Below are positions 2,592-40,995 of a DNA stretch of 64,000 nucleotides, piece after piece; positions within the stretch are counted from its first letter, which is position 1; every line of letters begins with the position of its first letter. Both the position numbers and the translations under genes were made by a program. The notes under the pieces were generated by a model. It saw only the letters and a program-made list of their open reading frames with translations. It had not been told where the DNA came from and made no database searches. This DNA is from a virus (Duplodnaviria; Caudoviricetes), in IMG/VR virus record IMGVR_UViG_3300035208_002115; one strand, written 5' to 3'.

Positions 2592-3545
2592 ATGAAAAAA
2601 AATAATTTAGCCTCTACTGGTTTAAGCTTATCACAGGCACAGTCAATTTCCAATTTGTGTAACCAAGCTGCAAAAGAAATTGAAAGAACAATTGATGAAA
2701 TAAATAATTGTTCTAAAACGATAAAGGTTAATTCAAAAGACCACACACTATTAGAATCACATCCACTACCTGAAAATATTATTGAACTTATTGAAAAGAA
2801 AGGTAGACTTCATGCTTGTCAGGCTTTTCTTATGGAAAATATTCGTGCCAAAGATAGTCTTTTAAATGAAGCTAAGATGGAATTACCTGATATTTCAGGT
2901 ATTGAAAAACCAAAACAACCAGAATATAAAGTAGCCAATATTATACCAAATGTTACTGACGACTGGGGTTGGTCTCAACTTTCTGCAACGGAAGTTAATG
3001 AATATACTGAGGCCGAGGCTATGGCTTCTCATATTGGTTTGTTTATCCATAAAGGTTCTAAATTAGATTTACTTCGTAGAGAGTTGTCGGTTATACCTTC
3101 TATCGAATGGTTCAATGTTGAAGATGGTAAAAAAACACCTGTCGAGATAAAAAAACACCACAACGCAGAAAAGTTGTTAAAACTACATGAAGAACTGGCT
3201 GCAAAACACCGAGATTATGAAAAACGTGTTAACTATTATAAGGCTAAAGTTAAGAACTTAAATACACAGGAGAATGCAGGTATCGCAAAAGTTAATGCAG
3301 ATGCTCAAACAGAGGTTGAAAAATACAATTCGGAACTTTCAGCAGAATACACCAATTTTCAAAAAATATATAGTGAAAAGGTTAAAACTGTTAAATCTGA
3401 GTTTGAAATAAAACGTCAGAATAATATTAAAAATATCGTTTCACTTCGTATTCAGGTTGACCTGCGCTTTCAGAAAACCGTTGATGAATTTCTGAAGAAC
3501 CTTGGTAAAGAAGAAGAAAAAAACGAAGAAAAAAACGAAGAATAA
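2592..3545 (+). CDS. hypothetical coiled-coil protein (317 aa)
   Basis: Long helical E/K/A-rich ORF with own promoter; followed by structured intergenic region. Confidence 0.8.
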   Translation: MKKNNLASTGLSLSQAQSISNLCNQAAKEIERTIDEINNCSKTIKVNSKDHTLLESHPLPENIIELIEKKGRLHACQAFLMENIRAKDSLLNEAKMELPDISGIEKPKQPEYKVANIIPNVTDDWGWSQLSATEVNEYTEAEAMASHIGLFIHKGSKLDLLRRELSVIPSIEWFNVEDGKKTPVEIKKHHNAEKLLKLHEELAAKHRDYEKRVNYYKAKVKNLNTQENAGIAKVNADAQTEVEKYNSELSAEYTNFQKIYSEKVKTVKSEFEIKRQNNIKNIVSLRIQVDLRFQKTVDEFLKNLGKEEEKNEEKNEE

Positions 3546-30241: not shown

Positions 30242-30985
30242 ATGCATATTGTTAGTGAAGAATTAAAAAATATCTACGAAGATACGGTCGCTCAATTAGA
30301 TAAAACACCTACAAAAAGCGAAACTAAACTTTATTCTTATAATCATTTACCATTCACAGTAAATATTGGTAATTATGACACCCAAATAGTATCTGTGATA
30401 CCTAAAGACACAATTTCATGTGCATTGGACTTCAGAGGAAACGGTAAAACCGCTATCCTTAATATGGCTTCTAACCGTAGAGCTGGTGGTGGTGTTATAA
30501 ATGGTGCTAAAGCACAGGAAGAATGTTTGTTCCGTTGCACCGACTTATATAAAACTATGACAATGGATTTTTATCCATTAAAACTTGCACATGGTTTATA
30601 TACAACAGATACTTTGATATTTAAAGATGCTCGTTATAATATATTGGAAGAACCAATGTATGTCGATACTATTTCCGTACCAGCGATTAATCTTAATAAA
30701 TTGAGTATGGAAAGAGATGTTTATGAAATAATTACCGAAGATAAAATAAATTTCATCTATAATCTCGCAGCAGCACACCATGTTGATAACCTGATACTGG
30801 GTTCTTGGGGCTGTGGTGTGTATAAAAATGACCCAGACTTCATATCCAAATTGTTTCTTAAAGTGTTACAAGAAAAGGGATACAAATTCAAAAAAGTGGT
30901 ATTTGGTGTCATCAATGACCATAATTCTGTTGGAAATAATTATGAGATATTTAAGAAAAATATTGATGTATCCATACCACAATAA
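30242..30985 (+). CDS. microbial-type PARG macrodomain (TIGR02452/DUF2263 family)
   Basis: LNMAS...GGGVINGAKAQEE and LILGSWGCGVYKN signatures. Confidence 0.85.
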   Translation: MHIVSEELKNIYEDTVAQLDKTPTKSETKLYSYNHLPFTVNIGNYDTQIVSVIPKDTISCALDFRGNGKTAILNMASNRRAGGGVINGAKAQEECLFRCTDLYKTMTMDFYPLKLAHGLYTTDTLIFKDARYNILEEPMYVDTISVPAINLNKLSMERDVYEIITEDKINFIYNLAAAHHVDNLILGSWGCGVYKNDPDFISKLFLKVLQEKGYKFKKVVFGVINDHNSVGNNYEIFKKNIDVSIPQ

Positions 30986-35281: not shown

Positions 35282-35306
35282 ATTTTTTTATTTAATATTT
35301 TTTATT

Positions 35307-35314
35307 TACTTTCG
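35307..35314 (+). promoter_or_regulatory. possible Bacteroidota -7 element for iscB
   Basis: TACTTTCG 25 nt upstream of ATG; one mismatch to TAnnTTTG. Confidence 0.4.
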
Positions 35315-35339
35315 TATATTATTTTTTATTTAATTTTAT

Positions 35340-36929
35340 ATGAAGAACAACCCAATTTATGTTATAGATTTCAACGGGCAACCATTAATGCCAACATTCA
35401 GATATGGTAAGGTTCGTCATATGCTTAAAAATAACCAAGCAAAAATAATAAAAAGAGACCCATTCTTTACTATTCAATTATTAACAAACACATCGTCATA
35501 TATACAGTATATTATTGGTGGTATAGATATTGGTGAAACCGTTGGAATATCGGTAATAAACCCAAAAAATAATACTGAAATATTGTCTGCCGAATTAAAA
35601 ACACGTAGTAAAGATATTCCAGATAAACTTAAAGAAAAAACTCAATATAGAAGAACCCGAAGAAATCATTTAAGATATAGAACAAAAAGATTTGAGAATA
35701 GGAAATCTTCATTAGGTAAATGTAAAGTGTGTGGTGGTAATACTAAAAGTGGAAAAGAATTTTGCTCAACATGCTTAGATACAGTTAATGGTAATCATAA
35801 TGCTTATAAAGATATTTCTAAAACTACATCACAAAAAAGACTTGCACCAAGCGTAAATCATTTAATTGATGCCAATCATAAAATTATAAATAAAATAAAT
35901 GAAATATTACCTATTAAAGAAGAAAATTGGATATACGAAAAAGTTAAATTCGATATACAGAAAATAGAAAATATTGATATATCAGGTGTTGGATATCAGC
36001 AAGGTGATATGTTTGGTTTTTCAAGTTTGAGAGAATATATATTAGAAAGAGATGAACATACATGTCAAAACCCCAACTGTAAACATAAGAATATTAAAAA
36101 CCTAAAAAAAGGTGAAAATGTTTATTTGAAAAATAATATTACATTAGTAACACATCATATAATATTCAGACATCTTGGTGGCACAGATAAACCAAGTAAT
36201 TATATTACGTTGTGTACTGATTGTCATATACCAACAAATCATCTAAAGGGTTATTTTTTATATGATTGGTGTATAAAAAAGAAAAAAGTTAAAAGTGATT
36301 ATAAAGCTGCTACTAAAATGAATGTGGTCGCTTCTTCTTTTGATGAAAAAAAGAATTTTATACCCACGTTTGGTTCTGAAACAAAAAGAAAAAGACAATT
36401 GATTGGTTTAGATAAAACCCATTCGAATGATGCCCTTTCTATTTGTATAGATAAAAATAATTTTGATTTGATTGATGATTCTGGAAAAAAGAAAGTTGTT
36501 TTAAAACGAGATTTCAATTTAAAAAAAATAGAACATCCTGATTATCTTATTCAAACAAATGGTCGTTCTAATGGTAGACGAGCATTAAGTACATTTCAGG
36601 ATTCTAAATATATTGATATCAGAGATGGAAAAGAAAAATCAGGAAAAGAGTTATCAAAAGAAATGGATAAACGAACACTTATAAATAATAATAGAATTTA
36701 TAGGGGAAAGAAAACAAGTAAAGGTTCTTTTGTTAAAAGAACTGGTATAAGTGAATTTCCAAATAATTCAATTATCGAATTTACATATAATGGTAAACAT
36801 TTTATTAAAGTGTGTGGTGGTGTAACTGGATATAATGTATATGTTAAAGATTTCGAGAAAAAAACAGTTGCAATAAAAAAATGTAATGTAAAAATAATCT
36901 GTAAAAGAAAAGGTGTTATTAAAAAATAA
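35340..36929 (+). CDS. iscB: IscB RNA-guided endonuclease (CRISPR-associated), 529 aa
   Basis: PLMP (15-18), RuvC-I GID63, bridge helix RRTRR..RYR..RF, RuvC-II E200, HNH HH272-273/N287/H296, RuvC-III H361/D364. Confidence 0.92.
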   Translation: MKNNPIYVIDFNGQPLMPTFRYGKVRHMLKNNQAKIIKRDPFFTIQLLTNTSSYIQYIIGGIDIGETVGISVINPKNNTEILSAELKTRSKDIPDKLKEKTQYRRTRRNHLRYRTKRFENRKSSLGKCKVCGGNTKSGKEFCSTCLDTVNGNHNAYKDISKTTSQKRLAPSVNHLIDANHKIINKINEILPIKEENWIYEKVKFDIQKIENIDISGVGYQQGDMFGFSSLREYILERDEHTCQNPNCKHKNIKNLKKGENVYLKNNITLVTHHIIFRHLGGTDKPSNYITLCTDCHIPTNHLKGYFLYDWCIKKKKVKSDYKAATKMNVVASSFDEKKNFIPTFGSETKRKRQLIGLDKTHSNDALSICIDKNNFDLIDDSGKKKVVLKRDFNLKKIEHPDYLIQTNGRSNGRRALSTFQDSKYIDIRDGKEKSGKELSKEMDKRTLINNNRIYRGKKTSKGSFVKRTGISEFPNNSIIEFTYNGKHFIKVCGGVTGYNVYVKDFEKKTVAIKKCNVKIICKRKGVIKK

Positions 36930-36967
36930 TTTTTTTATATCATTATTTTTTTTATTTTTACATTTAA

Positions 36968-36976
36968 GTTCTTTGA
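36968..36976 (+). promoter_or_regulatory. boxA-like antitermination site upstream of array
   Basis: GTTCTTTGA, also at 38232 and 38585 in the tRNA cluster. Confidence 0.45.
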
Positions 36977-37032
36977 AATTTTGTTAAATATCGATTAAGC
37001 AGTCACACCTTAAAAATGCGACTTTGTAACTT

Positions 37033-37504
37033 GTTGTGTATTGCTTTCAATTAATTAAGTAATTCAGTTATATAGTTGTGTATTGCTTTCAATTGATTGG
37101 GTAACTCAGTGGAGCAATATTTATATTAAATCAAAGCAGGGTTGTGTATTGCTTTCAATTGATTGGGTAACTCAGTATAAAATAATAGAATTAGAAAAGC
37201 GGTTAAGTTGTGTATTGCTTTCAATTGATTGGGTAACTCAGTGGTTGCTATTGATGGCATCGTGTTAGCTTTGTTGTGTATTGCTTTCAATTGATTGGGT
37301 AACTCAGTTTCTTCTTAGCAAGTTTAGTCGCATTCAGTGTTGTGTATTGCTTTCAATTGATTGGGTAACTCAGTTTATATCAGGTTTTACAAATGTGGCA
37401 ACGTTGTGTATTGCTTTCAATTGATTGGGTAACTCAGTAAGATATCTATGGTGATGAACCTTGGGATAGTTGTGTATTGCTTTCAATTGATTGGGTAACT
37501 CAGT
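37033..37504 (+). CRISPR. CRISPR array: 7 identical + 1 degenerate 36-bp repeats, 6 spacers of 28-30 bp
   Basis: GTTGTGTATTGCTTTCAATTGATTGGGTAACTCAGT at 37075, 37141, 37207, 37273, 37339, 37403, 37469; 4-mismatch copy at 37033. Confidence 0.97.
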
Positions 37505-37790
37505 ATAGCAATAAACAAATCGTTGTTAATCAATCATTTGAAACTAAAATCCGATGTAAAAAATCGAATTTTTTGAACACATTTAGACTAAGAGAAAGGA
37601 TTTTTCCAATCCTAATATCTACGTTATGTTAGAATGTGGATTAAACCACAAATAGGTACGTTAGTGTGATTCCCAAGCACTATCTTCTACGGTTGTTTTT
37701 TAAACATCTCTGTGCAATAGGAGAAGTGAAAACAACAATAAACCTAACAATAACTTTGTCAAAGGGAACTAACAGGATTTATTCCTGATT
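37505..37790 (+). ncRNA. omegaRNA/HEARO-like scaffold with anti-repeat (tracr-like)
   Basis: Anti-repeat segments 37507-37518 and 37525-37543; HEARO-like blocks TAGACTAAG, CTACGTTAT, ATAGGTAC, CTACGG, TTAAACA, AAACC, ATAAC; pseudoknot TTCCC/GGGAA. Confidence 0.8.
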
Positions 37791-37818
37791 TATTGATATT
37801 TAACAATTTCAAAGAAAT

Positions 37819-37857
37819 AATAAAAGCAGATGATTTATTTATCTGCTTTTATTTTTT
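37819..37857 (+). terminator. intrinsic terminator ending the CRISPR/omegaRNA unit
   Basis: AATAAAAGCAGAT/ATCTGCTTTTATT stem plus T run. Confidence 0.7.
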
Positions 37858-37877
37858 AAAAATAATTGCAACAAAAA

Positions 37878-37908
37878 TTTGTTTATATCGTAATAAGTAT
37901 TACATTTG
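37878..37908 (+). promoter_or_regulatory. Bacteroidota-type sigmaA promoter for tRNA cluster
   Basis: TTTG - 19 nt - TACATTTG; second motif TAATATATA at 37944-37952. Confidence 0.7.
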
Positions 37909-37984
37909 CAAAGTCAAAATGGAAAAAAGTGACCTTTTTGACTTAATATATAAGAAAACAAAAACAAATTTAAAATAACGCAAA

Positions 37985-38071
37985 ATGCTACTTTGTAATT
38001 TATATAATATGTATCTTAATAACTTAGAGAATGATAAAACTCTGGGCAGGGATATACTATGTATAAGTTAA
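37985..38071 (+). CDS. putative attenuator leader peptide (28 aa)
   Basis: MLLCNLYNMYLNNLENDKTLGRDILCIS; overlaps antiterminator strand 38041-38051. Confidence 0.6.
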   Translation: MLLCNLYNMYLNNLENDKTLGRDILCIS

Positions 38072-38100
38072 AAGCGGTAAAGCATTAAAATATACAACGG

Positions 38101-38130
38101 AAACCCTGCCAGATTTGGCAGGGTTTTTTT
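38101..38130 (+). terminator. attenuator terminator hairpin
   Basis: AAACCCTGCCA-GATT-TGGCAGGGTTT plus T run, 10 nt before first tRNA. Confidence 0.8.
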
Positions 38131-38139
38131 GTTTTATAC

Positions 38140-40140: not shown

Positions 40141-40995
40141 GTGATTAAAAAATGTGAGAATTATGATAAAGAAACATTAGATAAAATAATACAAAAATGT
40201 TTTTCAATAGCTGGAGTTTGTAGAGAATTAAATATAAAAGCAATTGGTGGTAATTATAAAACTATAAAATATTATATCAATGCTTATAATCTTGATATAT
40301 CACATTTTACTGGTAAAGGCTGGAATATAGGTGAAAGATATAATAACGTTAAAAATAAAATCCCTTTAAGTGAAATATTAGTTGAGAATTCCACATATAC
40401 AAATACACATTTATTAAAGAAAAGACTTGTTAAAGAAGGTTATTTTGAATATAAATGTAATGAATGTGGATTAACTGAATGGTGTAATAAACCAATTTCC
40501 TTGCATTTAGACCATATTAATGGCGATAATTTAGACCATAGAATAGAGAACCTAAGATTATTATGTCCGAATTGTCATAGTCAAACAGAAACTTACTGTT
40601 CTAAAAATAAAAAAAGTTCAAAAAATACATTAAGAATACATAATTTTATTGAAAATAAAGATTTCTTAATCAATAGAGAATCAAAGAAACAAAAACATTA
40701 TTGTGAATGTGGTAAAGAAATAGAAAAAAGGGCTAAAAAATGCAGAGAATGTTATAAAAAAGATAGAACTGAAAGTGTTAAACAAAAAAATCATTGTGCA
40801 TGTGGTAAAGTGATTAAAAATGAATCAGTGATGTGTTTGGATTGTTTACATAAACATAACAGAAAAGTGGAAAGACCATCATATGAACAATTAATTTTAG
40901 AAATTAATGAATCTTCTTATACCTCAGTGGGTAAAAAATATAATGTTGCAGCTAAAACCATTAAAAAATGGAAATTAGCTTATGAAAGAATTTAA
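40141..40995 (+). CDS. free-standing HNH (homing) endonuclease with zinc ribbons
   Basis: CNECG...LHLDHING...NLRLLCPNCHSQT; C-terminal CxCG repeats and HTH-like end. Confidence 0.85.
   Translation: MIKKCENYDKETLDKIIQKCFSIAGVCRELNIKAIGGNYKTIKYYINAYNLDISHFTGKGWNIGERYNNVKNKIPLSEILVENSTYTNTHLLKKRLVKEGYFEYKCNECGLTEWCNKPISLHLDHINGDNLDHRIENLRLLCPNCHSQTETYCSKNKKSSKNTLRIHNFIENKDFLINRESKKQKHYCECGKEIEKRAKKCRECYKKDRTESVKQKNHCACGKVIKNESVMCLDCLHKHNRKVERPSYEQLILEINESSYTSVGKKYNVAAKTIKKWKLAYERI

Follow-up and report, generated by a model that had tools for sequence, protein, structure and literature searches.

We analysed a 64,000-nt stretch of DNA (hereafter the window) that forms part of a 675,678-bp IMG/VR virus record (IMGVR_UViG_3300035208_002115; Duplodnaviria, Caudoviricetes), and found at positions 35,340-37,857 an iscB gene followed on the same strand by a CRISPR array, an anti-repeat and an omegaRNA scaffold. 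With an array beside iscB and an anti-repeat on the scaffold RNA, the locus is a CRISPR-associated IscB. We consider it likely that it represents a phage-encoded system of this kind whose array was probably captured from a host and is kept up by host Cas1-Cas2. CRISPR-associated IscBs are already known; particular to this one are a downstream layout that extends across its clade, a giant-phage carrier and the identity of its repeat. The locus is made up of the following features.

35340-36929, plus strand: iscB, 529 aa (Pfam, NCBIfam, structural relatives, clade alignment)
36930-37032, plus strand: gene-to-array leader, with a near-match to the Bacteroidota -7 box and an 11-nt motif
37033-37074, plus strand: degenerate first repeat (37033-37068) and 6-nt stub, the old end of the array
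37075-37504, plus strand: CRISPR array, seven perfect repeats of 36 nt with six spacers
37111-37140, 37177-37206, 37243-37272, 37309-37338, 37375-37402 and 37439-37468, plus strand: spacers 1-6
37505-37574, plus strand: linker (37505-37523, 19 nt), anti-repeat (37524-37556) and small hairpin
37575-37790, plus strand: omegaRNA (HEARO) scaffold core (Rfam HEARO RF02033, covariance model, fold)
37815-37863, plus strand: A+T-rich hairpin followed by a T-run (hairpin and T-run at 37815-37857)

The IscB protein, its array and its scaffold

The 529-aa protein shows the domain plan of an IscB, with a PLMP motif, an RRXRR bridge helix, RuvC I-III and an HNH domain, as well as a CxxC...CxxC zinc ribbon at the position of the recognition (REC) insert and a C-terminal domain that can be aligned with that of TbaIscB. 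Searches identify Pfam RRXRR (5e-42) and NCBIfam guided_IscB (240 bits, cut-off 175) in it, and its top solved relatives are TbaIscB (8e-36) and OgeuIscB (8e-31). D63, E200, H361, D364 and H272/H273 do not vary across an alignment of 15 members of its clade, nor do the four zinc cysteines, which bears out the intact RuvC and HNH residues listed in a preliminary description of the window. With its PLMP/RRXRR N-terminus, a split RuvC with inserted HNH and intact catalytic residues, the protein belongs to the IscB family, of which it is by sequence an ordinary member. No Cas9 or Cas9d NCBIfam model matches it at E <= 1, the clade profile scores 52 bits on a type II-D Cas9 structure (YnpsCas9) versus 205 bits on IscBs, and the protein is not the Cas9 effector with a REC lobe that defines type II systems.

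The carrier is a T4-like phage that encodes a T4-type Gp23 capsid protein (88 bits), and its G+C content is uniform across the genome (26-29%). We found neither Cas1 nor Cas2, nor a Y1 transposase (TnpA), across all 675,678 bp, and the gap between iscB and the gene upstream is 58 bp (35282-35339). The short upstream gap noted earlier is confirmed, the absence of cas1, cas2 and tnpA holds for the complete genome, and the IscB is phage-borne and domesticated in the sense of having no transposase. Lacking TnpA and transposon ends, and with its scaffold 3' of the gene, the locus is not in an IS200/IS605 context.

The leader between iscB and the array holds the near-match to the Bacteroidota -7 box at 36959-36966 and the 11-nt motif AAGTTCTTTGA at 36966-36976, which recurs in two relatives' leaders; gene and array are not separated by a terminator. 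The perfect repeats start at 37075, 37141, 37207, 37273, 37339, 37403 and 37469 and are identical to the base, while the six spacers are all unique and 28-30 nt long. Together with the degenerate copy, these make up the array of eight repeats and six distinct spacers that had been described. This is a type II-style architecture (36-nt repeat, 30-nt spacers) without the accompanying cas1/cas2. Nearly all of the 29 spacers in five arrays measure 30 +/- 1 nt (the single exception is 28 nt), and a near-constant length of this kind is characteristic of a ruler-type integrase. Spacer 1 begins with nine bases (37111-37119) that are nearly the same as the start of the linker after the last repeat (37505-37513), and it is possible that an early duplication of repeat and linker founded the array.

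Downstream of the array, the Rfam HEARO model (RF02033) matches 37575-37773 over its full length with 67 bits and E 1.6e-12 (gathering score 83), the only such match in the phage genome. The anti-repeat forms 26 pairs with repeat positions 1-32; the first bases of the repeat pair with 37577-37581 of the scaffold and the remainder with the anti-repeat, which takes the place of the usual 5' stem of omegaRNA. A 3' hairpin at 37773-37787 ends the scaffold. From the last spacer to the scaffold end, the predicted fold beats 100 of 100 shuffles (z -2.6). The hairpin and T-run at 37815-37857 are likely the terminator of the IscB unit, so that both the HEARO-like scaffold and the terminator proposed earlier are recovered, and no separate promoter for the scaffold was found at the locus. 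The pairing points to an IscB that an anti-repeat on its omegaRNA scaffold links to a multi-spacer array, consistent with the multi-guide system that had been suggested.

Logan contigs from two sequencing runs differ from the window at the array. In a groundwater run 37071 is joined to 37466, skipping the spacers, and in a landfill run the contig breaks at the array; a collapse like that of the groundwater contig is also seen in locus L018 compared with L017. We take the collapsed or broken arrays to be assembly effects, which are indistinguishable from real variants. No RNA run containing the locus was found among the public runs listed.

A gene-first clade of IscBs

We searched 5.8 billion proteins and fetched the contigs of the matches. 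The nearest relatives of the window protein form a tight group at 42-63% identity, and the next ordinary IscBs follow at <=40%; a scan of IMG/VR for close relatives with the single window protein found nothing. Five protein lineages (43-62% identity) share the arrangement iscB, array, anti-repeat, scaffold: P0002 on L009, L010 and L011, P0008 on L025, P0011 on L017, P0013 on L021, and the window itself. Their arrays hold 3 to 11 repeats, with eleven repeats of 45 nt in L017. The contig of another clade member, L013, ends within an array of 66-nt period, and several clade contigs end shortly past iscB, as expected where repeats break assembly. A further member, P0003 (58% identical; L012, 1603-3279), lies directly 3' of a tRNA gene.

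The repeats vary between the five gene-first lineages, and each scaffold is preceded by an anti-repeat that matches its own array, forming 23-33 pairs. When repeats and anti-repeats are compared all against all, for each of the five repeats no other duplex in its row surpasses the cognate one. In an alignment of the scaffolds, 15 pairs show compensatory changes. Using a covariance model built from four scaffolds, we searched ~135 further loci from metagenomes and IMG/VR, and the model places the scaffold just 5' of iscB in essentially all of them; ~110 more distant relatives have this upstream arrangement. All gene-first loci fall into one clade with a Shimodaira-Hasegawa-like support of 99 in a FastTree phylogeny of 109 proteins, a set assembled without Cas9 and TbaIscB. 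The gene-first order, which the preliminary description had pointed out for the window, is real and conserved, within one clade of five lineages. The clade is probably phage-borne.

This clade sits in a group of 22 members that also includes L057/L116, where an IscB on a 248-kb viral contig has its array 5' of the gene with a repeat that is, by our own count, 78% identical to that of L009. The association with arrays is therefore probably older than the placement of the guide locus 3' of iscB. Upstream arrays are also present beside more distant phage IscBs. Two IMG/VR contigs of 92-175 kb (L129 and L134, at ~3018-3452) have 36-nt repeats that start with GTTTTAGAG, end with CAAAAC and resemble those of type II-A Cas9; in L028 the repeats are 32 nt long and end in ATTGAAAC; and L140 has a 37-nt repeat with a perfect anti-repeat. 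Several repeat classes therefore exist among phage IscB arrays.

Origin and use of the array

We searched prokaryotic genomes, one for each species, for arrays with repeats starting GTTGTGNNTTRC and obtained at least 120 arrays; among the matches listed, 104 are from Bacteroidota and 12 have 36-nt repeats, while most have 46-47-nt repeats with 30-nt spacers. Among the arrays listed, Chitinophagaceae repeats (L212, L197) are identical to the window repeat at 28 of 36 positions (78%). Outside the searched motif, 18 of 24 positions match, versus a mean of 11.9 and a maximum of 16 for the best match of 500 shuffles. The bacterial arrays that we examined adjoin cas9, a type II cas1 and cas2 (L208 and L221 with 47-nt repeats, and L281 from Chryseotalea with 36-nt repeats), and neither an IscB nor a HEARO scaffold was found near them. 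Read in the sense of the CRISPR RNA (crRNA), the L221 array starts with its degenerate repeat and has its cas2-proximal end 3'; the phage arrays are oriented alike, their degenerate repeat lying at the 5' end. A gene resembling REP-associated tyrosine transposases lies between cas9 and cas1 in L221 (4140-4913) and L281 (3992-4612).

The window repeat thus appears to be a recent-looking relative of Bacteroidota type II-C repeats. Because repeat family, spacer length and position of the degenerate repeat are shared with type II-C arrays, the array was probably captured from a Bacteroidota host with type II-C cas9-cas1-cas2. The phage has no adaptation genes and yet its array keeps type II metrics, polarity and repeat family, which makes spacer uptake by host Cas1-Cas2 the leading hypothesis; the host enzymes would probably act in trans to insert new spacers. 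The repeat identity favours either capture of host type II-C adaptation or dependence on it. In this clade, the first stem of the omegaRNA would have been replaced by a type II-C-like array together with a matching anti-repeat. Extended to the other repeat classes, the most economical account would be that phage IscB lineages have repeatedly been coupled to arrays of a kind present in their hosts.

In the mechanism that we propose, a transcript starting from iscB or from a leader promoter would extend through the 37815-37857 hairpin. Its final spacer and repeat, together with linker, anti-repeat and scaffold, could then fold in cis into a complete single-guide omegaRNA, whereas internal spacer-repeat units would pair in trans with anti-repeat-scaffold molecules, much as crRNA pairs with trans-activating CRISPR RNA (tracrRNA). 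We assign the trimming of these trans-paired units to host RNases because no RNase III was found anywhere in the phage genome. IscB would cut DNA that matches the repeat-proximal part of a spacer beside a target-adjacent motif, and its use is likely to lie in conflict with other mobile elements or phages in a shared host.

Several results weigh against this interpretation. The search for targets that the preliminary description had called for gave no convincing protospacer for any spacer in the phage, plasmid, Chitinophagaceae and fetched-locus collections searched, so that the use against competing phages, mobile elements or the host proposed there is conjecture. Within the phage genome no spacer has a second copy at <=5 mismatches, and the sole match of the array to 50,697 phage records is 39 nt at 87% and spans a spacer-repeat border. 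No match in IMG/VR was obtained with the exact 3' 20-mers of spacers from the window (four) and from L017 (two), PLSDB plasmids gave none either, and the 29 spacers of the five arrays matched none of the fetched loci; in the opposite direction, 1,798 spacers of bacterial II-C arrays gave only partial or low-complexity matches to the phage. The host repeats are also imperfect counterparts, the best being just 78% identical and 47 nt rather than 36 nt long, and beyond their first 12-18 nt the repeats of L025, L021 and L017 match the sampled host repeats no better than shuffled controls. On the RNA side, the HEARO score of the window scaffold stays below the Rfam gathering score, the duplex energies are modest (z -1.9 to -4.4) because the sequences are A+U-rich, and some non-cognate repeat:anti-repeat pairs equal the cognate ones in score. 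Finally, clade member L012 has neither array nor scaffold within 1.4 kb of its gene, where the guide locus may have been lost or lie elsewhere. One further candidate target came from 401 Chitinophagaceae genomes, a single 24/28 match of spacer 5 inside a gene for a LigB-type dioxygenase; we rejected it as being at chance level for the search space and without mobile-element context.

The array could also be a fossil beside a single-guide IscB, in which only the last spacer is used in cis and the upstream units are inert leftovers of duplication or capture. In its favour, six spacers would share the single scaffold of a transcript, the last unit already forms a complete fold in cis, a promoter specific to the scaffold was not found, and two Logan contigs encoding the same proteins show a single repeat at the locus. 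The collapsed contigs, however, are the expected product of k-mer assembly for repeats longer than k and hence weak evidence, and decay is hard to reconcile with seven repeats identical to the base, spacers that all differ and are uniform in length, and the retention of 3 to 11 repeats in five diverged lineages, so we think this explanation unlikely. We see even less probability in an array that serves a host Cas9 instead of IscB, either re-aiming Cas9 at rivals or soaking it up as an RNA anti-CRISPR. Such a role would fit a repeat of the Bacteroidota type II-C family (28/36 identical) whose homologues stand beside cas9 in the absence of iscB, but the phage array always adjoins iscB, the clade arrays each precede an anti-repeat that is fused to an IscB scaffold and matched to their own repeat, and the window repeat is shortened (36 versus 47 nt) and differs from the nearest host repeat by 22%. 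It had been foreseen that homologous arrays occurring independently of iscB would speak against use by IscB. They do occur in bacteria, but they do not refute that use, because each phage scaffold has an anti-repeat to its own array; moreover, the two roles are not mutually exclusive.

The preliminary description also viewed the locus as an intermediate between IscB and Cas9. As such a relic, it would have inherited array, anti-repeat and gene-first order from the stock ancestral to type II systems, and the likeness of the repeats would reflect common descent. TbaIscB, which has been termed a link to Cas9 (PMC13180657, PMC13622844), does align with the protein over the zinc-ribbon insert (REC position) and over the C-terminal domain, and both the layout and the 36/30-nt metrics of the array resemble type II. 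Against this stand the missing Cas9 and Cas9d matches and the low clade-profile score on II-D Cas9, as well as the position of the clade, which is nested among IscBs with an ordinary upstream scaffold. A repeat identity of 78% to one modern bacterial family is too high for so old a split, and other IscB lineages carry II-A-like or unrelated repeat classes. Since these distinct classes and the recent-looking II-C repeat fit repeated secondary coupling to host arrays better than a relic of Cas9 origin, the intermediate view is weakened, and we give it a very small chance of being correct.

Returning to an IscB that uses a host-captured array, a bolder version deserves mention as a tentative possibility. 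The giant-phage IscB may be wired to the CRISPR memory of its host, its scaffold taking up crRNAs with host II-C repeats and host Cas1-Cas2 writing spacers during infection, with the rewiring repeated for each type of host array (II-C-like here, II-A-like in L129/L134, others in L028 and L140). If this is true, tracrRNA-style split guides arise easily and repeatedly, and phages would be a natural workshop for Cas9-like systems.

Known systems and the surroundings of the locus

CRISPR-associated IscBs are said to have been reported by Altae-Tran and colleagues in 2021. The present clade adds a coherent group to the few that are known, shows that a guide locus behind the gene is possible, and connects the array of an IscB with one particular family of bacterial Cas9 arrays. 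Association of IscB with CRISPR arrays evolved independently in several small branches (PMC10734277), and DNA cleavage has been demonstrated for one CRISPR-associated IscB, DelIscB (Zhang et al. 2025, PMC12660989). The window locus has in common with DelIscB-type systems a small IscB, the lack of cas1/cas2, and a guide RNA in which repeats, spacers and an anti-repeat are attached to a scaffold of omegaRNA type. In DelIscB, however, the array and noncoding RNA are 5' of the open reading frame, as are the arrays of the more distant array-bearing relatives of the window locus, whereas in the window they are 3' of the gene in an order that is fixed in the clade. The window locus further differs in its carrier, a 675-kb phage, and in a repeat of the Bacteroidota type II-C family, and it is known from sequence alone.

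Among HEARO/IscB contigs, Goltsman et al. found ~16% to be viral, but they described the HEARO systems as having no association with CRISPR (PMC9755519). With the canonical OMEGA IscBs of IS200/IS605 elements (OgeuIscB; HEARO RF02033), the window locus shares its protein family, its catalytic residues and the core structure of its scaffold. Unlike these, the window has no TnpA or transposon ends, its scaffold is 3' of the gene, its first stem is split into repeat and anti-repeat, and it has six guides instead of one. Common to the window and Bacteroidota type II-C systems (L208, L221, L281) are the repeat family (starting GTTGTG...TTTCAA), 30-nt spacers, the degenerate repeat at the 5' end in the crRNA sense and the logic of crRNA:anti-repeat pairing. 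In contrast to II-C Cas9, the window effector, an IscB of 529 aa, lacks a REC lobe, its scaffold is of HEARO type rather than a short tracrRNA, no adaptation module is present, and the repeat is 36 nt long versus mostly 46-47 nt in the II-C host arrays.

On the TnpB side, a functional analogue may be Cas12r-CRISPR of the Thermus Lalka phages, for which interference with plasmids and phages has been shown and which is aimed at rival integrative elements (bioRxiv 10.64898/2026.04.20.719267). Both are phage-encoded compact nucleases of transposon ancestry with an array of their own; Cas12r belongs to the TnpB/Cas12 lineage with function and targets established by experiment, whereas our locus belongs to the IscB lineage and is read from its DNA. 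For phage arrays without cas1/cas2, the idea of borrowed host adaptation was vague, and the locus turns it into a testable pairing of phage repeat and host type II-C integrase. An omegaRNA naturally split into crRNA-like and tracrRNA-like parts would also bear on the origin of tracrRNA, and, being a nuclease of 529 aa that naturally comes with a multi-guide array, the protein is a candidate for a compact multiplex editor.

Around the locus, a protein with a microbial-type PARG (poly-ADP-ribose glycohydrolase) domain is encoded 4 kb 5' of iscB (30242-30985), and the window contains 16 tRNA genes, among which lies a free-standing HNH endonuclease (40141-40995; phrog_10822, 5.8e-51). A full Bacteroidota-type promoter, TTTG-N19-TACATTTG, is present at 37878-37908, 3' of the terminator of the IscB unit, and ~190 nt past it a strong terminator hairpin (38099-38128) stands just ahead of the first tRNA gene. 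The stretch from promoter to hairpin (37878-38135), which gave weak leader-like matches at most in Rfam, could be a leader or attenuator of the tRNA cluster. The promoter motif TTTG-N18-20-TAnnTTTG is not enriched across the phage genome (26 observed versus 21.9 in shuffles), and for this reason we did not use it for host assignment. The 14-mer ATGCNACTTTGTAA has only two copies in the 675-kb genome, one 4 nt 5' of the degenerate first repeat (37016-37029) and one ahead of the tRNA cluster (37985-37998), and it may be a start or processing signal common to the array and the tRNA cluster.

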